16,966 bases of DNA from IMG/VR virus record IMGVR_UViG_2703718855_000004; one strand, 5' to 3'. The stretch is from a virus. Taxonomy: Duplodnaviria; Heunggongvirae; Uroviricota; Caudoviricetes. The translations under genes and the position numbers were made by a program. The notes below the pieces were generated by a model. The model saw only the letters and a list, made by a program, of their open reading frames with translations. It made no database searches and was not told the origin of the DNA. Positions 3,022 to 15,548 of the stretch are shown in pieces. Numbering within the stretch: the first letter of the stretch is position 1; each line of letters opens with the position of its first letter.

Positions 3022-3603
3022 TTACCCTATAGGTGCTACTGGCCATTCAATATCCTGTGCAGTTGACGTATCAACACGGTTCAGCAATACCCGATACTTT
3101 TTCCAGGCTTCCAGCAACAAGGTTTCTTCCTCCGTTGCGATTTCCAGATCCACAGCATCCTGAAGCGGCGCTATATGCTCACTGGCTACCTGCATCAGGC
3201 TGTTTTTTGTTTCTTCCACCTCCCGGATCCGGAACAGTTTTTCTGCTTCCGTATCCTTCACCCAGGCTGTGCCGTTCCACTTCTGAAACTCCCCTTCCGG
3301 GGATAACCAGGTAACATTTTCCGGTAATGAGCCGAGTTCAGAAATAAATAACGCGTCCCCTGATGCCACGTCATAAACTGTTTTACCCCGATGGTCTTCA
3401 ACAAGATGCCACGATGACTCATCACTGTTGAAAACAGCCACGAAGCCAGCCGGAATATCTGGCGGTGCAATATCGGTACTGTTTGCTGGCAGACCTGTAT
3501 GAGGCGGAATATATGCATCACCTTCACCAATAAATTCATTAGTTCCGGCCAGCAGATTATAAATTTTTATGGTCCGTGGTTGTTCACTCATTCTGAATGC
3601 CAT
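3022..3603 (-). CDS. tfa: Tail fiber assembly protein Tfa (lambda-type)
   Basis: 193-aa [47 protein letters not shown]... is collinear over its full length with lambda Tfa as I recall it. Confidence 0.9.
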
Positions 3604-3848
3604 TAACCAACACGGGCAGACTTCACCACATTCACCTCGCGGATGTAGTCGCTGCCCATCGCATTCATGATGGCCCGCTGAAAGGGCAGTGTTTCCCAGC
3701 GCCCTTCCTGGTATGCGGATTCTTTCGGGAGATAGTAATTAGCATCCGCCCATTCAACGGCGGTCTGTGGCTCCGGCCTGAACAGTGAGCGAAGCCCGGC
3801 GCGGACAAAATGCCGCAGCCTGTTAACCTGACTGTTCGATATATTCAC
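3603..3848 (-). pseudogene. Terminase large subunit (gpA) N-terminal fragment, about 81 codons, stop overlapping the tfa start
   Basis: [81 protein letters not shown] matches the first ~81 residues of lambda gpA, then stops. The stop and the tfa ATG overlap (TAATG). The rest of A and all head and tail genes are missing. Confidence 0.85.
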
Positions 3849-4368
3849 TCAGCAACCCCGGTATCAGTTCATCCAGCGCGGCTGCTTTGTTCATGGCTTT
3901 GATGATATCCCGTTTCAGGAAATCAACATGTCGGTTTTCCAGTTCCGGAAAACGCCGCTGCACCGACAGGGGGATCCCGTCGAGAATACTGGCAATTTCA
4001 CCTGCGATCCGCGACAACACGAAAGTACAGAATGCGGTTTCCACCACTTCAGCGGAGTCTCTGGCATTCTTCAGTTCCTGTGCGTCGGCCTGCGCACGCG
4101 TAAGTCGATGGCGTTCGTACTCAATAGTCCCTGGCTGGAGATCTGCCTCGCTGGCCTGCCGCAGTTCTTCAACCTCCCGGCGCAGCTTTTCGTTCTCAAT
4201 TTCAGCATCCCTTTCGGCATACCATTTTATGACGGCGGCAGAGTCATAAAGCACCTCATTACCCTTGCCACCGCCTCGCAGAACGGGCATTCCCTGTTCC
4301 TGCCAGTTCTGAATGGTACGGATACTCGCACCGAAAATGTCAGCCAGCTGCTTTTTGTTGACTTCCAT
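3823..4368 (-). CDS. nohD: Terminase small subunit Nu1 (lambda-type)
   Basis: 181-aa ORF MEVNKKQLADIFGASIRTIQNWQEQGMPVLRGGGKGNEVLYDSAAVIKWYAERD... is full-length and collinear with lambda Nu1. Its 3' end overlaps the gpA fragment start as in lambda. The symbol is chosen by analogy with K-12 cryptic-prophage naming. Confidence 0.85.
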   Translation of the reverse strand: MEVNKKQLADIFGASIRTIQNWQEQGMPVLRGGGKGNEVLYDSAAVIKWYAERDAEIENEKLRREVEELRQASEADLQPGTIEYERHRLTRAQADAQELKNARDSAEVVETAFCTFVLSRIAGEIASILDGIPLSVQRRFPELENRHVDFLKRDIIKAMNKAAALDELIPGLLSEYIEQSG

Positions 4369-6308: not shown

Positions 6309-6602
6309 ATGAAAAAAATGCTACTCGCTACTGCGCTGGCCCTGCTTATTACAGGATGTGCTCAACAGACGTTTACTGTTCAAAACAAACCGGCAGCAGT
6401 AGCACCAAAGGAAACCATCACCCATCATTTCTTCGTTTCTGGAATTGGGCAGAAGAAAACTGTCGATGCAGCCAAAATTTGTGGCGGCGCAGAAAATGTT
6501 GTTAAAACAGAAACCCAGCAAACATTCGTAAATGGATTGCTCGGTTTTATTACTTTAGGCATTTATACTCCGCTGGAAGCGCGTGTGTATTGCTCACAAT
6601 AA
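6309..6602 (+). CDS. borD: Bor outer-membrane lipoprotein (lambda bor-type, serum-resistance moron)
   Basis: 97-aa ORF MKKMLLATALALLITGCAQQTFTVQNKPAAVAPKETITHHFFVSGIGQKK... with lipobox ITGC. It matches lambda Bor as recalled and lies opposite to the lysis genes as in lambda. Confidence 0.9.
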   Translation: MKKMLLATALALLITGCAQQTFTVQNKPAAVAPKETITHHFFVSGIGQKKTVDAAKICGGAENVVKTETQQTFVNGLLGFITLGIYTPLEARVYCSQ

Positions 6603-8390: not shown

Positions 8391-9473
8391 ATGAAAAAAT
8401 TAACAGTGGCAATTTCTGCTGTAGCTGCATCAGTACTGATGGCGATGTCTGCTCAGGCAGCTGAAATTTATAATAAAGACAGTAACAAGCTGGATCTGTA
8501 CGGGAAAGTTAATGCTAAGCACTACTTCTCCTCTAATGATGCAGATGATGGTGATACTACTTATGCCCGTCTTGGCTTCAAAGGTGAAACCCAAATCAAC
8601 GATCAACTGACTGGTTTCGGTCAGTGGGAATATGAATTCAAAGGCAACCGCGCTGAATCTCAAGGTTCCTCCAAAGATAAAACCCGTCTTGCCTTCGCTG
8701 GCCTGAAATTCGGTGACTACGGCTCCATCGATTATGGCCGTAACTACGGTGTAGCATACGATATTGGTGCATGGACCGACGTTCTGCCAGAATTCGGTGG
8801 CGATACCTGGACCCAAACAGATGTATTCATGACTGGTCGCACCACAGGTGTTGCAACTTATCGTAACAATGACTTCTTTGGTCTGGTTGATGGTCTGAAC
8901 TTTGCTGCTCAGTATCAGGGTAAAAATGACCGCACTGACGTAACTGAAGCTAATGGTGATGGTTTCGGTTTCTCCACTACTTATGAGTATGAAGGATTCG
9001 GTGTAGGTGCAACCTATGCTAAATCTGACCGCACTAATAATCAGGTTATCTACGGTAACAACAGCCTGAATGCATCTGGTCAAAATGCTGAAGTATGGGC
9101 AGCTGGTCTGAAATATGATGCGAACAACATCTATCTGGCTACCACCTATTCTGAAACCCAGAACATGACTGTTTTTGGTAATAACCATATTGCCAACAAA
9201 GCACAAAACTTCGAAGTAGTTGCACAATATCAGTTCGACTTCGGTCTGCGTCCGTCCGTTGCTTACCTGCAATCTAAAGGAAAAGACTTGGGTGCGTGGG
9301 GTGATCAGGACCTGGTTGAATATATTGATGTAGGTGCAACCTATTACTTCAACAAAAATATGTCCACTTTTGTTGATTACAAAATCAACCTGATTGATAA
9401 GAGCGATTTCACGAAAGCATCTGGCGTTGCTACCGATGATATCGTTGCTGTAGGTATGGTTTACCAGTTCTAA
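8391..9473 (+). CDS. nmpC: General porin of the OmpC/OmpF/PhoE family, prophage-encoded (NmpC/Lc-type), apparently intact
   Basis: 360-aa product [23 protein letters not shown]|[23 protein letters not shown]... has a signal peptide, the porin N-terminal motif, and a C-terminal ...GMVYQF with terminal Phe typical of OM beta-barrels. The start was chosen at 8391, not the ORF-track 8331. Confidence 0.9.
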
Positions 9474-11535: not shown

Positions 11536-11725
11536 GCTTCACCTCCGCAGAGGTCAGACGCTGGATGCAAAAAATCGCAGGTGCATTTCTGCATCTGTGA
11601 AGGGAGAAGAGAGTTTGGATTGTATGTGCGCATAAACGTCCCCGTTTAGCGCAGAAGTCACCGGAGTTGTTCAAGCTCCGATGACTTTATTATTACGAAT
11701 TGATTTTACAAAATCAAAAGGTATG

Positions 11726-12178
11726 TTAGTGACGCGGGTCTGTTATTATGCGAGAAGGGTTTCCGTATAAAACAAGGACCTTACTTCCTTGAGTAAATAA
11801 CGGATCTTTGCCTTGAACAATGGTCATTAAATTCCCATTCTCAGTTTCGACAACATATTCCATGCCTGTTTGTTTTGTTGCTGAAGATTCGATTGCTGCC
11901 CCGGCAATACCACCAATGACTGCACCACCAACGGCACCAACGATATTAGAACGAACTCCCCCACCAAGCGCAGAACCAGCGGTTGCCCCCACGGCAGCCC
12001 CAGCAGTCCCGCCTAACGCGGAAGTCCCACTGATATCAACCCCCCTAGCACTAATAACTGTACCAGCGATAGTTCGATTAACCATGCCCACAGAGCCAAC
12101 AGAATAACTATTTGGCGATATATTTTGTGCGCATCCAACCAACACTAAGAGTGGAGCAATTACGAATAATCGCTTCAT
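11726..12178 (-). CDS. Outer-membrane lipoprotein with glycine-zipper domain, SlyB/Pcp-like
   Basis: 150 aa. Signal peptide with lipobox LVGC, then a long Gly/Ala zipper (GGTAGAAVGATAGSALGGGVRSNIVGAVGGAVIGGIAGAAI), then a C-terminal segment GMEYVVETENGNLMTIVQGKDPLFTQGSKVLVLYGNPSRI that aligns by eye with the E. coli SlyB C-terminus. The start overlaps the upstream gene's stop (ATGA). Confidence 0.8.
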   Translation of the reverse strand: MKRLFVIAPLLVLVGCAQNISPNSYSVGSVGMVNRTIAGTVISARGVDISGTSALGGTAGAAVGATAGSALGGGVRSNIVGAVGGAVIGGIAGAAIESSATKQTGMEYVVETENGNLMTIVQGKDPLFTQGSKVLVLYGNPSRIITDPRH

Positions 12179-12735
12179 TTAGCTACCCTAACAGGAAACA
12201 TTGGACGAGAAAGATCAACACTTTCTAATGCTTGCAAGAACTGCGTTATGTTGTTTTGCACCGCGCGATTAACAGATTCGCGTGCTCGAACAATACCGTA
12301 GAATGCGTAACTGGCTGGAACAGTACCGGTAGACTCAATATCCTGCGTATATATAATATCACCATTCGCACGGTTGATTATTTCATACCTTGCAATTGCT
12401 TTAGTTGTCATTGAAACACCAAAAGCAGGAACGTCAAGAGCCAACACTTTAACATTTAAGCTAACCGTATTTGGTGAACTATCACGAAAAATAGTCATTC
12501 GGTCGAGTGCTTCCTGCAAAGATTCACGCCAAATTGGAGTTATAGCCTCCATACCAGCAGTGATATCCCCTTTCTGCTCATCTGGACGAGCAAGTGATAC
12601 CGTTAATGACTTAATTTCAGCATCTATTTTTTTCTGGCTAACTCCCACGTTAGGTGTTGAAAAATTCAATGGTGGCACACTAGCGCAACCTGTTAAAGAA
12701 CCAATAATCATGGCTAATAATATTATCTTCTTCAT
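12175..12735 (-). CDS. Uncharacterized lipoprotein, first gene of a two-gene lipoprotein operon
   Basis: 186 aa. MKKIILLAMIIGSLTGC|ASVPP... has lipobox LTGC and a Shine-Dalgarno-like AAGG 8 nt upstream. I recognise no family. It is translationally coupled to the SlyB-like gene. Confidence 0.75.
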   Translation of the reverse strand: MKKIILLAMIIGSLTGCASVPPLNFSTPNVGVSQKKIDAEIKSLTVSLARPDEQKGDITAGMEAITPIWRESLQEALDRMTIFRDSSPNTVSLNVKVLALDVPAFGVSMTTKAIARYEIINRANGDIIYTQDIESTGTVPASYAFYGIVRARESVNRAVQNNITQFLQALESVDLSRPMFPVRVAK

Positions 12736-12991
12736 AAATTTACCTTATTGTTATAACCAAAGGAATTATAAAGTAAAAAAGTTCACTATCACTAGCCATT
12801 AACGACATCAATTTCAGAGAAACATGGTACTCATTTCCACAAATTTGACACAAGTCATTTTCACCTACATATTCCATCATACTTGATGCATATGTTATTG
12901 AAGCCTCTATCCTATCCGTTCATAATAGCAATAGTTACCCGGGTGATAGTACCTCTATGATTACTCGTCTTTCTGATTGATTGGATTAAAT

Positions 12992-13183
12992 ATGCGCGCC
13001 AAAATTTATCAACTTTCGTTATGGATATTTATTTCGTTTCTAGCGATCTATGCCTTTATTATCTATAAAGGTTCTTATATTGGAGTAGCATTGCATCAAA
13101 TTGCTTGGATCATCATTATTGCCTCTGGCTTGATTGCTAGGCTAACTAAACCAAAGCAAAAACCAATTTCGTCCAATAATTAG
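12992..13183 (+). CDS. Small hydrophobic ORF with two predicted TM helices (hypothetical)
   Basis: 63 aa from the ATG at 12992: MRAKIYQLSLWIFISFLAIYAFIIYKGSYIGVALHQIAWIIIIASGLIARLTKPKQKPISSNN. The ORF track starts at 12977 on a non-ATG codon. There is no convincing RBS, and the surrounding DNA is AT-rich and divergent from the lipoprotein operon. Confidence 0.3.
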   Translation: MRAKIYQLSLWIFISFLAIYAFIIYKGSYIGVALHQIAWIIIIASGLIARLTKPKQKPISSNN

Positions 13184-13340
13184 ACATGTATTAAAAAAAT
13201 GATATTTTTATGTACATAGTCTATTGAAAATTGCCGCGATAAAATGCCAACACCCGCTTCATCGCGGCACTCTGGCGACACTCCTTGAAAATCAGATTCG
13301 TGCTCACCTTTCCTTCCCGTTCTTCCCTGGTAGCGAACCG

Positions 13341-13789
13341 GTAATCATCCGATCTGCGTTACCGAGTGGATGGATGAATGCCGCCGCGAACCATTCAAAA
13401 CCCGCGAAGGCAGAGAAATTACGGGGCCGTGGCAGTCGCATCCCAAACGGATGTTACGGCATAAAGCCATGATTCAGTGTGCCCGTCTGGCCTTCGGATT
13501 TGCTGGTATCTATGACAAGGATGAAGCCGAGCGCATTGTCGAAAATACCGCATACACCGCAGAACGTCAGCCGGAACGCGACATTACTCCGGTTAACGAT
13601 GAAACCATGCAGGAGATTAACACTCTGCTGATTGCCCTGGACAAAACATGGGATGACGACTTATTGCCGCTCTGTTCCCAGATATTTCGCCGCGACATTC
13701 GCGCATCGTCAGAACTGACACAGGCCGAAGCAGTGAAAGCTCTTGGATTCCTGAAACAGAAAGCCACTGAGCAGAAGGTGGCAGCATGA
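13341..13789 (+). pseudogene. bet: bet (Red-beta recombinase), 5'-truncated; only the C-terminal ~149 codons remain
   Basis: From about 13341 the frame reads (G)NHPICVTEWMDECRREPFKTREGREITGPWQSHPKRMLRHKAMIQCARLAFGFAGIYDKDEAERIVENTAYTAERQ...KVAA, matching the C-terminal part of lambda Bet. There is an in-frame stop at 13331..13333 and unrelated sequence upstream. Confidence 0.85.
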
Positions 13790-14466
13790 CACCGGACATT
13801 ATCCTGCAGCGTACCGGGATCGACGTGAGAGCTGTCGAACAGGGGGATGATGCATGGCACAAATTACGGCTCGGCGTCATCACCGCTTCAGAAGTTCACA
13901 ACGTGATAGCCAAGCCCCGCTCAGGAAAGAAGTGGCCTGACATGAAAATGTCCTACTTCCACACCCTGCTGGCTGAGGTTTGCACCGGTGTGGCTCCGGA
14001 AGTTAATGCTAAGGCGCTGGCATGGGGAAAACAGTACGAGAACGACGCCAGAACCCTGTTTGAATTCACTTCCGGCGTGAATGTTACTGAATCCCCGATC
14101 ATCTATCGCGACGAAAGTATGCGCACCGCCTGCTCTCCCGATGGTTTATGCAGTGACGGCAATGGCCTTGAGCTGAAATGCCCGTTTACCTCCCGGGATT
14201 TCATGAAGTTCCGGCTCGGTGGTTTCGAGGCCATAAAGTCGGCTTACATGGCCCAGGTGCAGTACAGCATGTGGGTGACACGAAAAGATGCCTGGTACTT
14301 TGCCAACTATGACCCGCGTATGAAGCGTGAAGGACTGCATTATGTCGTGGTTGAGCGGGATGAAAAGTACATGGCGAGTTTTGACGAGATGGTGCCGGTG
14401 TTCATCGAAAAAATGGACGAGGCACTGGCTGAAATTGGTTTTGTATTTGGGGAGCAATGGCGATGA
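13786..14466 (+). CDS. exo: Lambda exonuclease (Red-alpha), full length
   Basis: 226-aa [68 protein letters not shown]...GEQWR is collinear with lambda Exo over its full length, with only a few substitutions from the recalled sequence. The start overlaps the bet stop (ATGA). Confidence 0.95.
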
Positions 14467-15548
14467 CGCATCCTCACGATAATATCCGGGTAGGCGCAAT
14501 CACTTTCGTCTACTCCGTTAACCTTTATATAAGAAACAATGGATATTACTGCTACAGGGACCCAAGGACGGGTAAAGAGTTTGGATTAGGCCGAGACAGG
14601 CGAATCGCAATCACTGAAGCTATACAGGCCAACATTGAGTTATTTTCAGGACACAAACACAAGCCTCTGACAGCGAGAATCAACAGTGATAATTCCGTTA
14701 CGTTACATTCATGGCTTGATCGCTACGAAAAAATCCTGGCCAGCAGAGGAATCAAGCAGAAGACACTCATAAATTACATGAGCAAAATTAAAGCAATAAG
14801 GAGGGGTCTGCCTGATGCTCCACTTGAAGACATCACCACAAAAGAAATTGCGGCAATGCTCAATGGATACATAGACGAGGGAAAGGCGGCATCAGCCAAG
14901 TTAATCAGATCAACACTGAGCGATGCATTCCGAGAGGCTATGGCTGAAGGCCATATAACAACAAACCCGGTCGCAGCCACTCGCGCTGCAAAATCAGAGG
15001 TAAGGAGATCAAGACTTACGGCTGACGAATACCTGAAAATTTATCAAGCAGCAGAATCATCACCATGTTGGCTTAGACTTGCAATGGAACTGGCTGTTGT
15101 TACCGGGCAGCGAGTTGGTGATTTATGCGAAATGAAGTGGTCTGATATCGTAGATGGATATCTTTATGTCGAGCAAAGCAAAACAGGCGTAAAAATTGCC
15201 ATCCCAACAACATTGCATGTTGATGCTCTCGGGATATCAATGAAGGAAACACTTGATAAATGCAAAAAGATTCTTGGCGGAGAAACCATAATTGCATCTA
15301 CTCGTCGTGAACCGCTTTCATCCGGCACAGTATCAAGGTATTTTATGCGCGCACGAAAAGCATCAGGTCTCTCCTTCGAAGGGGATCCGCCAACCTTTCA
15401 CGAGTTGCGCAGTTTGTCTGCAAGACTCTATGAGAAGCAGATAAGCGATAAATTTGCTCAACATCTTCTCGGGCATAAGTCGGACACCATGGCATCACAG
15501 TATCGTGATGACAGAGGCAGGGAGTGGGACAAAATTGAAATCAAATAA
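14457..15548 (+). CDS. int: Lambda-type integrase (tyrosine recombinase) with replaced N-terminus: 22 codons matching the start of lambda orf60a are fused in frame to Int from about residue 16
   Basis: 363-aa [25 protein letters not shown]|[27 protein letters not shown]... After the junction (nt ~14520) it is near-identical to lambda Int and retains the catalytic residues (R in VTGQRVGD, K in SKTGVK, H-x-x-R in [10 protein letters not shown] and Y in [11 protein letters not shown]). The start overlaps the exo stop. Confidence 0.88.

Follow-up and report, generated by a model that had tools for sequence, protein, structure and literature searches.

The window analysed here is a stretch of 16,966 nucleotides from E. 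coli VG48B2, which represents a multiply deleted lambdoid prophage adjoining ybhC. In the region of interest, an AT-rich stretch upstream of a lipoprotein operon is followed by a small gene on the opposite strand and by the 3' end of ren, which is in turn fused to a truncated bet. The features discussed are listed below, with coordinates that refer to the window.

11720..13245 (borders approximate within a few bases), mosaic insert made up of the small-gene unit and the lipoprotein operon, between ren and ylcH/ybcN(ninB)
11726..12178, minus strand, lipo2, 150-aa SlyB-like glycine-zipper lipoprotein with lipobox LVGC, whose start overlaps lipo1 by 4 nt
12175..12735, minus strand, lipo1, 186-aa outer-membrane lipoprotein with lipobox LTGC and an LptE/CsgG/PelC/DUF330-type fold (phrog_12521)
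12736..12991, AT-rich divergent intergenic region of 256 nt between the lipoprotein operon (minus strand) and the small gene (plus strand)
12765..12792, minus strand, candidate lipoprotein-operon promoter GTGATA-16-TATAAT, proposed from a 10/12 match to the sigma-70 consensus only
12956..12961, plus strand, candidate -10 hexamer of the small gene, TATGAT, 30 nt upstream of the ATG, proposed from its position only
12992..13183, plus strand, small gene for a 63-aa protein with two predicted transmembrane helices (ORF, homologues, dN/dS, hydropathy, AlphaFold2)
13181..13223, AT-rich hairpin that occupies the interval separating two convergent stops (small-gene UAG at 13181-13183, complement of the ren stop at 13221-13223)
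13221..13345, minus strand, ren 3' remnant (last ~40 codons plus stop), a PGAP pseudogene, aligned to the intact ren of E. coli 042, PhiR30_1 and lambda
13232..13269, GC hairpin with 9-bp arms and a 20-nt loop, within the last 16 codons of ren
13341..13345, ren'/'bet deletion junction with the 5-bp microhomology GTAAT, 72 nt beyond the GC hairpin
13346..13789, plus strand, bet 3' remnant (RecT-like annealase), followed by exo

Composition and borders of the insert

The 486-nt stretch from 12736 to 13221, in which the RefSeq PGAP annotation places no CDS, has a GC content of 32.1%; the window as a whole is at 44.5%, and the ren/bet and nin DNA on either side is at ~51-52%. By part, the leader and small gene are at 32-34%, lipo1 is at 40% and the flanks are at ~51%. 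An earlier note on this DNA had treated 12736-13340 as a single AT-rich unit; this description is accurate as far as 13221, while the last 120 nt (13221-13340) are the minus-strand 3' remnant of ren.

The same note had taken the DNA for recently acquired and had proposed a comparative alignment to locate its borders. Alignments show that lambda/DLP12 ren homology stops near 13245 and that DLP12 ylcH-ybcN homology starts near 11719; these sharp homology borders define an insert of ~1.5 kb of which the AT-rich stretch is the upstream third. In lambda the gap between ren and ninB is 73 nt, whereas here 1.5 kb separates ren from ylcH/ybcN. The ren/ninB junction is the site of the tR2 terminator in lambda, where the lambda sequence reads GGCCTGCTGGTAATCGCAGGCCTTTTTATTT. 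Of 5426 complete E. coli genomes, 280 carry this DNA at an identity of ≥99%; the leader, the lipoprotein genes and the ren-end segment, each counted on its own, gave 280 genomes apiece. The same insert, together with complete ren, P and O, is found in E. coli 042 and in the intact relative PhiR30_1, for which a literature search found no paper. Thus, the comparisons support the view that the AT-rich DNA is a horizontally acquired, compositionally deviant insert. DNA of 32% GC may be silenced by H-NS, so that expression in a lysogen is an assumption of the interpretation developed below.

Beyond the features listed, the divergent region yielded little. Within 12736-12991 there was no vestige of theta-like or other neighbour genes above shuffled background, and an Rfam search of the whole window gave no RNA family for the region or its surroundings at E≤1. 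A 46-aa ORF on the minus strand (12740-12880) was rejected as a gene; it is of chance length and lacks a homologue in the homologous loci examined.

Klebsiella oxytoca, Edaphovirga and a siphophage tail module carry the lipoprotein pair but not the small gene. In these three loci DNA homology to the window begins exactly at the lipo1 ATG, and upstream of the pair both the ORF and the leader are absent. Sequence comparison therefore indicates that the pair is a separate mobile module that moves between chromosomes and phages. Lipo2 has the lipobox, the glycine-zipper 2TM domain and the full-length similarity expected of the SlyB family (E=1.3e-14 to SlyB, PDB 7ojf, over residues 2-149), and it matches PF05433 at E=3e-4, which is below the Pfam cut-off. 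The pair, a SlyB-like envelope module, is widely mislabelled 'UDP-N-acetylglucosamine acyltransferase'.

The small gene and its family

The small ORF extends from the ATG at 12992 to the TAG at 13181-13183 and encodes MRAKIYQLSLWIFISFLAIYAFIIYKGSYIGVALHQIAWIIIIASGLIARLTKPKQKPISSNN. It has a weak Shine-Dalgarno sequence and is present in one copy per genome; PGAP had left it out of all six E. coli records inspected. When the 486-nt region is put through dinucleotide shuffling, an ATG ORF of at least 63 aa arises in 8.7% of the shuffles, and an ORF of at least 55 aa that also contains two hydrophobic 19-residue windows arises in only 0.2% of them. The two hydrophobic helices that had been noticed in this frame are real. 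An AlphaFold2 model (pLDDT 71.6) places helices at residues 3-25 and 30-52 in a helical hairpin, with a predicted N-in/C-in topology, basic termini on the same side and a basic C-terminal tail, features that are consistent with a predicted location in the inner membrane.

A word-seeded protein search retrieved near-identical E. coli sequences only. Exhaustive HMMER searches identified homologues at 37-50% identity with E-values down to 2e-14, and a profile search collected 12 non-E. coli clusters from Klebsiella, Citrobacter, Pseudocitrobacter and metagenomes (33-52% identity, 57-63 aa). All clusters but one begin with MRAK, MRVK or MQAK, and the family shares the motif Y[IL]GVxL[HN]Q and a basic tail. 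When two family members were compared by tblastn with 50,697 phage genomes, the match was to PhiR30_1 only. Values of dN/dS are 0.19 for L020/L021 (a pair of Pseudocitrobacter loci), 0.06 for L044/L045, 0.15 for L014/L044 and 0.19 for the window and L014. By these comparisons the family is rare, belongs to the Enterobacteriaceae and is under purifying selection; since the amino-acid sequence is selected and the flanking DNA is unalignable, it is the protein itself that is the object of selection.

These data bear on the proposal that the ORF is a chance frame and that the region does no more than supply the lipoprotein operon with a promoter and an H-NS-bound leader. Such a reading could appeal to the frequency of frames of this length in shuffled DNA, to the lack of a PGAP call in RefSeq E. 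coli genomes, to the lack of a Pfam or PHROG family, and to the closest lipoprotein cassettes, which are without the ORF. It is effectively refuted by conservation, as length, start and motifs are retained across 12 diverged clusters, dN/dS being far below 1, and as the synonymous/non-synonymous pattern contradicts a conserved non-coding element; the rarity of the two-helix hydropathy pattern in shuffles also argues against it. The sole indel in the aligned E. coli variants is located immediately beyond the ORF, and one variant of the protein has lost a single codon in frame, both of which fit a coding frame; taken as a set, the 280 E. coli copies, with ≥99% identity and a single common indel outside the ORF, are uninformative on coding. 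We regard a chance frame as extremely improbable, and the comparative evidence indicates that the small ORF is a genuine gene for a two-helix membrane protein.

The position of this gene is also conserved. All lambdoid loci examined have it at the boundary of the replication and nin modules, antisense to all neighbours. For example, in eight loci (L014, L044, L046, L047, L049, L050, L051 and L052) it is the sole opposite-strand gene and is found between O/P or O/DnaB/DnaC and genes for theta-like, DUF1367, NinB, NinE, NinG, RusA or Q proteins. In L045 it adjoins xis, again on the opposite strand. The Pseudocitrobacter loci L020/L021, as well as L019, are chromosomal and contain no recognisable phage genes in the limited sequence examined, which suggests that the function of the protein need not concern phages. 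The divergent neighbour varies among loci (a theta-like gene, an unknown gene or the lipoprotein pair), and on this basis the small gene is an independent unit, not a partner of the lipoproteins. The earlier note had named a lack of conservation in related cassettes as grounds for refutation. Taken at its word, this is what is seen, as the closest lipoprotein cassettes lack the ORF; the ORF is conserved all the same, as a gene that stands on its own beside other neighbours.

The earlier note had also seen the character of a small membrane toxin or of an immunity-type peptide in the ORF. The second may hold and is taken up below; the first would be a membrane-damaging toxin (type I toxin-antitoxin-like or an abortive-infection effector) that is silent in AT-rich DNA. 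The protein is small and very hydrophobic, its gene has a weak Shine-Dalgarno sequence in an AT-rich context, and its strand is convergent with PR, so that lytic growth would yield antisense RNA. A toxin finds no support, as there was no match at E≤1 in Pfam, NCBIfam or PADLOC, toxin families included, and these searches did not place the protein among the type I toxins (Hok/Gef, Ldr, TisB, Ibs, ShoB and others). Rfam shows no antitoxin sRNA in the window (an uncharacterised antisense RNA is possible), the gene is single-copy, and the homologous units are compact (~65 nt upstream, the ORF, then a hairpin), with no room for an antitoxin gene or a long regulatory 5' UTR. Furthermore, two Pseudocitrobacter species stably retain the gene at a single chromosomal locus (dN/dS 0.19), and the conserved polar residues (H/N-Q) in the two helices point to a specific partner and not to general membrane damage. 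Overall, a toxin seems unlikely.

A class II holin or antiholin-like lysis regulator would share other properties of the protein. Class II holins typically have two transmembrane helices, an N-in/C-in topology and a highly basic C-terminal tail, all of which are predicted here. Against this, ~4 kb separate the gene from the lysis cassette (essD-rrrD-rzpD), the late and early operons are both read from the other strand, no holin-family match was found, and each of the homologous loci already has its own holin genes elsewhere. Class II holins are encoded in the lysis cassette, upstream of the endolysin, and are co-transcribed with the late genes, whereas the small gene is antisense in the early-right region, as it is in all homologous loci. 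A role in lysis is in our opinion as improbable as a chance frame.

Transcription signals, hairpins and the deletion junction

Two back-to-back, independently transcribed units would account for 12736-13245, namely the small gene and the 5' control region of the lipoprotein operon; the operon, encoding an LptE-fold lipoprotein and a SlyB homologue, would be read on the PR strand and the small gene on the opposite one. It had been claimed that the promoter of the lipoprotein operon must be in this stretch, and because PR is deleted in the prophage, such a promoter is very probably located in the AT-rich DNA. The candidate is 29 nt upstream of the ATG at 12735, which has a good Shine-Dalgarno sequence (AAGG). 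For the small gene, the homologues checked (L014, L044 and L020) have a TATAAT-like hexamer that precedes the ATG by 33, 29 and 29 nt, respectively, and similar -10-like hexamers were seen by eye in most others. A promoter scan flags two other plus-strand sites (12845-12873 and 12898-12926) instead of TATGAT, and its six promoter-like sites are no excess over the 5.0 +/- 2.2 in shuffles. The upstream regions of family members have no significant DNA similarity to one another or to 12736-12991 when compared with shuffled background, and a CGTTCATAAT decamer shared by upstream regions was rejected because it occurs at chance level.

Downstream of the small gene, the AT-rich hairpin between the convergent stops folds at -10.7 kcal/mol (z -2.7), and its loop has one A fewer in ~242 of 280 genomes. 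Hairpins 3' of the small-gene stop have z-values of -2.7 to -4.1; in the window the terminator scan calls none of them. In L014 a canonical terminator is called directly after the small gene, in L050 the stop codon is adjoined by a PR-facing terminator, and hairpins like the latter are also present in L044 and L047.

The GC hairpin is formed by a perfect inverted repeat (TGCCGCGAT at 13232-13240 and ATCGCGGCA at 13261-13269). The earlier note had reported this stem-loop; the 9-bp GC stem is real, and the coordinates given for it there were one base off. While any perfect 8-bp inverted repeat is found in 25% of shuffles, a G+C-rich one is found in 0.15%. The predicted folding energy is -16.1 kcal/mol on the plus strand and -21 kcal/mol on the minus strand (z about -2.9). 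On the minus strand, the PR direction, the hairpin is followed by AUUUUCAAUAG. Read as a tR2-like terminator it would lie after ren, with the -21 kcal/mol stem followed by AUUUUCAAU, a 20-nt loop and a U-run of four; the terminator scan rule does not call it, given the long loop and a U-tract of only four U after an A. The right arm is in ren sequence common to lambda and DLP12, and the left arm is insert-specific. If the hairpin has any role, the likeliest is to attenuate rightward transcription weakly, in the manner of tR2, and/or to give the convergent mRNA of the small gene a structured 3' end.

The truncation of bet, next to which this hairpin had been noticed, is also real. The joint at 13341-13345 was left by an illegitimate deletion, which brought ren' up against 'bet and took out the regions for immunity and replication, with the loss of P, O, cII, cro, cI, N, kil and gam when set against the intact relative. 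The hairpin is not a border signal; it is in ren coding sequence and is also present in phages with intact ren and bet. Judged from these alignments, the junction is a plain microhomology deletion to which the GC hairpin is unrelated, and the proximity of the two is a coincidence.

The hairpins also permit a mainly regulatory reading of the locus, in which a convergent unit, along with hairpins at the place of tR2, would dampen PR read-through into nin/Q or set its timing, the peptide being secondary. The invariance of the replication/nin position and antisense orientation across diverged phages would be explained, as would the PR-facing terminator that abuts the stop in L050, the similar hairpins of L044 and L047, and, on the minus strand of the window, a GC hairpin and U4 at the ren end, the site of tR2 in lambda. 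Against this, purifying selection has acted on the encoded protein, in the midst of flanking DNA that is unalignable, and the members beside xis (L045) and at non-phage chromosomal loci are without PR read-through. Although protein and regulatory roles are not mutually exclusive, a mainly regulatory locus is to our minds about as unlikely as a toxin.

Proposed role and comparison with known systems

The explanation that we judge probable combines a three-part composite region with a small membrane protein expressed by the prophage. As the small gene faces PR and has promoter-like and terminator-like elements of its own, it is probably expressed from a repressed or defective prophage, and convergent PR transcription would silence it during lytic growth. 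We infer that its product is most likely an inner-membrane protective factor expressed by the prophage; acting alone on an inner-membrane target, it would either protect, through superinfection exclusion or in the way of an immunity protein, or modulate a membrane protein of the host. Exclusion specifically is in our view less likely than not. Somewhat more doubtful is the broader idea that the MRAK...Y[IL]GVxL[HN]Q family constitutes an unrecognised, position-locked lambdoid accessory gene, active in the lysogenic or defective state only, that excludes superinfecting phages or gates nin/Q read-through with a convergent promoter and terminator at the tR2 site. If this were true, the family would represent a new prophage-encoded defence or regulatory module that is largely missed by annotation pipelines; if the protein were without phenotype, it would be an ordinary orphan moron. 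Small membrane proteins are systematically under-annotated, of which this conserved one is an example, and its fixed antisense position in Escherichia, Klebsiella and Citrobacter makes it a testable candidate for an exclusion or membrane-modulating factor.

Searches against known families place few constraints on this role. The small protein had no match to any known exclusion, immunity, toxin or holin family; its single PHROGs match (0.096) was not reproduced by homologues, and a BFVD fold search of viral structures with the 63-aa model returned nothing at E<4. Small inner-membrane exclusion proteins such as HK97 gp15/YebO and T4 Imm show no similarity to it by Pfam, PHROG or BFVD fold search.

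Morons are independent transcription units expressed from repressed prophages, in the Juhala/Hendrix definition (PMC3594210). Like them, the insert is extra DNA between genes that are adjacent in related phages and has a base composition unlike that of the surrounding genes. The HK97 moron gene product gp15 is a small inner-membrane superinfection exclusion protein related to YebO (PMC3594210). As with gp15 (PMC3594210), the present case involves a small, here predicted, inner-membrane protein in an autonomous lambdoid insert of deviant composition with its own, here candidate, signals, and a family with chromosomal non-prophage relatives in Enterobacteriaceae. The two proteins differ in that there is no sequence relationship (no Pfam match at E≤1), and in that gp15 is encoded in the tail operon whereas the small gene is at the replication/nin boundary, antisense to the operon.

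The lambda genes bor and lom, which act in lysogenic conversion and have promoters of their own, are likewise accessory envelope-protein genes of lambdoid prophages that are independent of the lytic cascade, as the small gene is proposed to be, and bor, as seen in the window, is also opposite to its neighbours' strand. In contrast, bor and lom encode outer-membrane proteins in the late region, whereas the small gene is in the early-right region and encodes a predicted 63-aa inner-membrane hairpin. Among the lipoproteins of the SlyB and LptE-CsgG-PelC types, lipo2 is a full-length SlyB match and lipo1 has the alpha/beta outer-membrane lipoprotein fold, but here the two genes form a translationally coupled pair.

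Compared with lambda tR2, the GC hairpin shares a place directly after ren and, on the PR strand, a hairpin of -21 kcal/mol with AUUUUC after it; PR-facing hairpin and U-tract elements also occur in homologous loci. It differs from tR2 in having no sequence similarity to it, in overlapping ren coding sequence, and in its 20-nt loop and four U residues. Finally, DLP12 of E. coli K-12 has the same insertion point at its ren-ylcH junction, where homology stops in the last ren codons and resumes ~90 nt upstream of ylcH, with different cargo (emrE, ylcJ, ybcK, ybcL and ybcM) and neither a small-protein member nor a lipoprotein pair. The use of one insertion point for other cargo shows that the ren/ninB (tR2) junction is a recurrent cargo slot, occupied by emrE-ybcM in DLP12 and by theta-like genes or the lipoprotein pair elsewhere.

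Borders of the insert and deletions of the prophage

The window is the reverse complement of positions 1382101-1399066 of NZ_CP128584.1 (E. coli VG48B2 chromosome, 100% identity) and contains a DLP12-like lambdoid prophage that adjoins ybhC. In the direction of the PR operon, the (-) strand carries ren', the insert, ylcH, ybcN (ninB), ninE, ybcO, rusA, ylcG and quuD, and the (+) strand carries bet', exo and int. At least three deletions are present, at ren'/'bet, DUF1317/integrase and terminase/tail-fibre assembly, the last two at these features:

14457-15548 (+): ORF of 363 aa, the DUF1317 (orf60a) N-terminus (first ~20 residues) fused to a lambda-type integrase
about 3022-3850 (-): terminase large-subunit fragment joined directly to the tail-fibre assembly gene

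The integrase part of the fusion lacks its first ~14 residues, and the fusion marks a second deletion in which the xis/ea region was lost; the terminase joint is a third, which removed nearly all morphogenesis genes. The tail-fibre assembly gene also contains an IS009 match (Rfam RF02111, 218 bits, E=9e-54) at 3062-3260 (-). Opposite-strand accessory genes of this prophage include an OmpC/NmpC-type porin gene between Q and the lysis genes (8391-9473, +) and bor past the lysis genes (about 6309-6602, +).

The earlier note described 12736-13340 as AT-rich, and 12736-13221 is indeed 32.1% GC, versus 44.5% for the window and ~51% for both flanks; the remainder, 13221-13345, is instead a 3' remnant of ren on the (-) strand. 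The comparative alignment that the note had proposed, made against E. coli 042, N1420, HMDUC-17, strain 98234 and the inducible phage PhiR30_1, all of which have ren, P and O complete, gives identity as far as 13345; past this point the window enters bet and the relatives continue in ren. By comparison with lambda bet, the GTAAT at 13341-13345 also occurs in bet at the joint, which is an ordinary illegitimate deletion across 5 bp of microhomology. Homology to lambda and DLP12 ren ends near 13245, within the last ren codons, and DLP12 homology resumes near 11719, ~7 nt past the lipo2 stop codon, so the insert is ~1.5 kb long. Its leader (the AT-rich part upstream of lipo1), its lipoprotein genes and the segment with the left arm of the GC-rich hairpin described below are each found in 280 of 5426 complete E. 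coli genomes, in one copy and at ≥99% identity; the ren'/'bet deletion is common to only ~25 of these insert carriers.

Coding status and setting of the small gene

The insert holds two back-to-back units:

12992 (ATG) to 13183 (TAG) (+): small gene, 63 aa with two hydrophobic segments
11726-12735 (-): lipoprotein pair, lipo1 and lipo2 (elsewhere at L009 4001-5010, L011 4001-5010 and L012 4001-5019, loci compared with the window)

The length of the small ORF is by itself unremarkable, being reached in 8.7% of dinucleotide shuffles, and only 0.2% yield an ORF of at least 55 aa that has two hydrophobic windows. The small protein matched no curated family and a word-seeded search returned only E. 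coli copies; 1.84 billion representatives were then scanned exhaustively with HMMER, which yielded three distant homologues (50%, 49% and 37% identity; E = 2e-14, 1e-6 and 6e-6, respectively). With a profile search and collection scans, the family now comprises 12 non-E. coli clusters, from Klebsiella pneumoniae, Klebsiella sp., Citrobacter braakii, two Pseudocitrobacter species and metagenomes. Members are 57-63 aa long (one gene call is longer, from an upstream start), begin with MRAK, MRVK or MQAK in all but one case (MCEK in the homologue P0132), share Y[IL]GVxL[HN]Q around the turn and the beginning of helix 2, and have a basic C-terminal tail. AlphaFold2 on the family alignment predicts a helical hairpin (helices 3-25 and 30-52, pLDDT 71.6), in line with the two helices first noticed. 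Flanking DNA could not be aligned between members. Among aligned E. coli variants the sole indel is in a poly-A run just past the stop codon, and one variant protein lacks a single Ile, its codon having been lost in frame.

dN/dS of the small gene (Nei-Gojobori; only pairs without saturation at synonymous sites)
L020/L021: 0.19
L044/L045: 0.06
L014/L044: 0.15
window/L014: 0.19

The small ORF is therefore a real, previously uncharacterised membrane-protein gene.

In every lambdoid locus examined (L014, L044, L046, L047, L049, L050, L051, L052 and the E. coli insert), the small gene has the replication module (O/P or O/DnaB/DnaC, plus small accessory ORFs) on one side and the nin module (including theta-like, DinI, DUF1367 or NinB, NinE, NinG, RusA and Q) on the other, and is the sole opposite-strand gene. 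At L045 it is flanked by xis and early-left genes and once more runs against them. This antisense position is invariant. Two contexts showed no recognisable phage genes in the limited flanks examined: in Pseudocitrobacter the small gene is flanked by a lambda-phosphatase-like and a GGDEF gene, and at L019 it adjoins mlaFE-like genes. The divergent neighbour varies: most loci have a DNA polymerase III theta-like gene there, Citrobacter an unknown gene of 100 aa and E. coli the lipoprotein pair. This theta (HolE)-like gene, across only ~65-70 nt, is the usual neighbour in lambdoid prophages of the Klebsiella type:

L014 4672-4929; L049 4673-4930; L050 4681-4935; L051 3204-3461; L052 4687-4935

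The lipoprotein pair, for its part, is found without the small gene in a K. oxytoca chromosome (adjoining umuDC/SRAP), in Edaphovirga and in a siphophage (inserted between the tape-measure gene and gpM), with the 4-nt lipo1/lipo2 overlap kept in all three and DNA homology to the window starting exactly at the lipo1 ATG. Because each occurs without the other, the small gene and the lipoprotein operon are two independent units, and the treatment of the region as one cassette does not hold; the pair of lipo1 and its SlyB-like partner forms a mobile module of two genes. Lipo2 is homologous to SlyB (PDB 7ojf, E=1.3e-14), and lipo1 gives a good model (pLDDT 87.5) and has the LptE/CsgG/PelC/DUF330 lipoprotein fold at TM 0.4-0.55. 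The lipo1 family, widespread among both Gamma- and Betaproteobacteria, is widely mislabelled as 'UDP-N-acetylglucosamine acyltransferase' or 'YajG family'.

In HMDUC-17 (L005 1652-2814), lipo1 is broken by an IS3 element, and the leader and small gene are intact.

Candidate promoters and hairpins

Promoter-consensus matches were no more numerous than in shuffles; the following sites are candidates only:

12792..12765 (-): candidate lipo1 promoter, GTGATA-16-TATAAT, 29 nt upstream of the lipo1 ATG
12845-12873 and 12898-12926 (+): candidate promoters from the scan
12956-12961 (+): candidate hexamer TATGAT

The lipo1 ATG is preceded by an AAGG Shine-Dalgarno sequence. By position, TATGAT is the counterpart of a TATAAT-like hexamer that, in the homologues checked (L014, L044, L020), precedes the ATG by 29-33 nt.

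The gap between the small-gene stop and the convergent ren stop is filled exactly by an AT-rich hairpin (13181-13223), in which the UAG of the small gene pairs with the complement of the ren UAG; the hairpin loop has one A fewer in ~242 of 280 genomes. Next to this hairpin is a GC-rich one, a 9-bp inverted repeat (13232-13240 / 13261-13269, 20-nt loop) that folds at -16 kcal/mol on (+) and -21 on (-) and is followed by AUUUUCAAUAG on the PR-direction strand. The right arm of the GC-rich hairpin (ATCGCGGCA on (+)) falls within ren sequence that is conserved with lambda and DLP12, and its left arm within the insert-specific last ren codons. The stem-loop reported beside the bet breakpoint thus exists, but it is unrelated to the bet deletion because phages whose ren and bet are both intact carry it too. 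It might serve as a weak attenuator resembling tR2, as a 3' structure of the small-gene mRNA, or as both. The 121-nt (+) segment past the small-gene stop folds with z = -4.1; a canonical terminator follows the homologue at L014, and at L050 the homologue's stop codon directly adjoins a terminator that faces the PR direction.

A further hairpin with a 10-bp stem, GTCAYCGGAGCYTGAACAACTCCGGTGAC, lies at 11657-11685 (-), just upstream of the 33-aa ylcH ORF; it lacks a U-tract and is kept in K-12 DLP12 with one G-U change.

Proposed role of the small protein

A gene opposed to PR could not belong to the lytic cascade, and with its own candidate signals the small gene would most plausibly be expressed from a repressed or defective prophage and be silenced once induction starts PR transcription that converges on it. 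Such a pattern would be that of lysogenic-conversion and exclusion genes. As no partner gene is conserved with it, the protein is expected to work alone, presumably at the inner membrane on a host or incoming-phage component. As the likeliest single function we tentatively favour protection, of the exclusion or immunity type, one possibility among several; modulation of the host membrane comes next. The toxin character that the earlier note read from the two hydrophobic helices is less likely than either, given a single-copy gene in a compact unit, with stable chromosomal orthologues, no toxin family match and no antitoxin RNA found. The original observation is thus confirmed and its interpretation supported in part.

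The insert occupies the site of tR2 in lambda, and DLP12 carries emrE, ylcJ, ybcK, ybcL and ybcM at the same place instead. Nothing found here contradicts established phage biology, and the region is a probable moron-type insert holding a small membrane-protein gene, to be set beside the definition of morons and the precedent of HK97 gp15 (PMC3594210).
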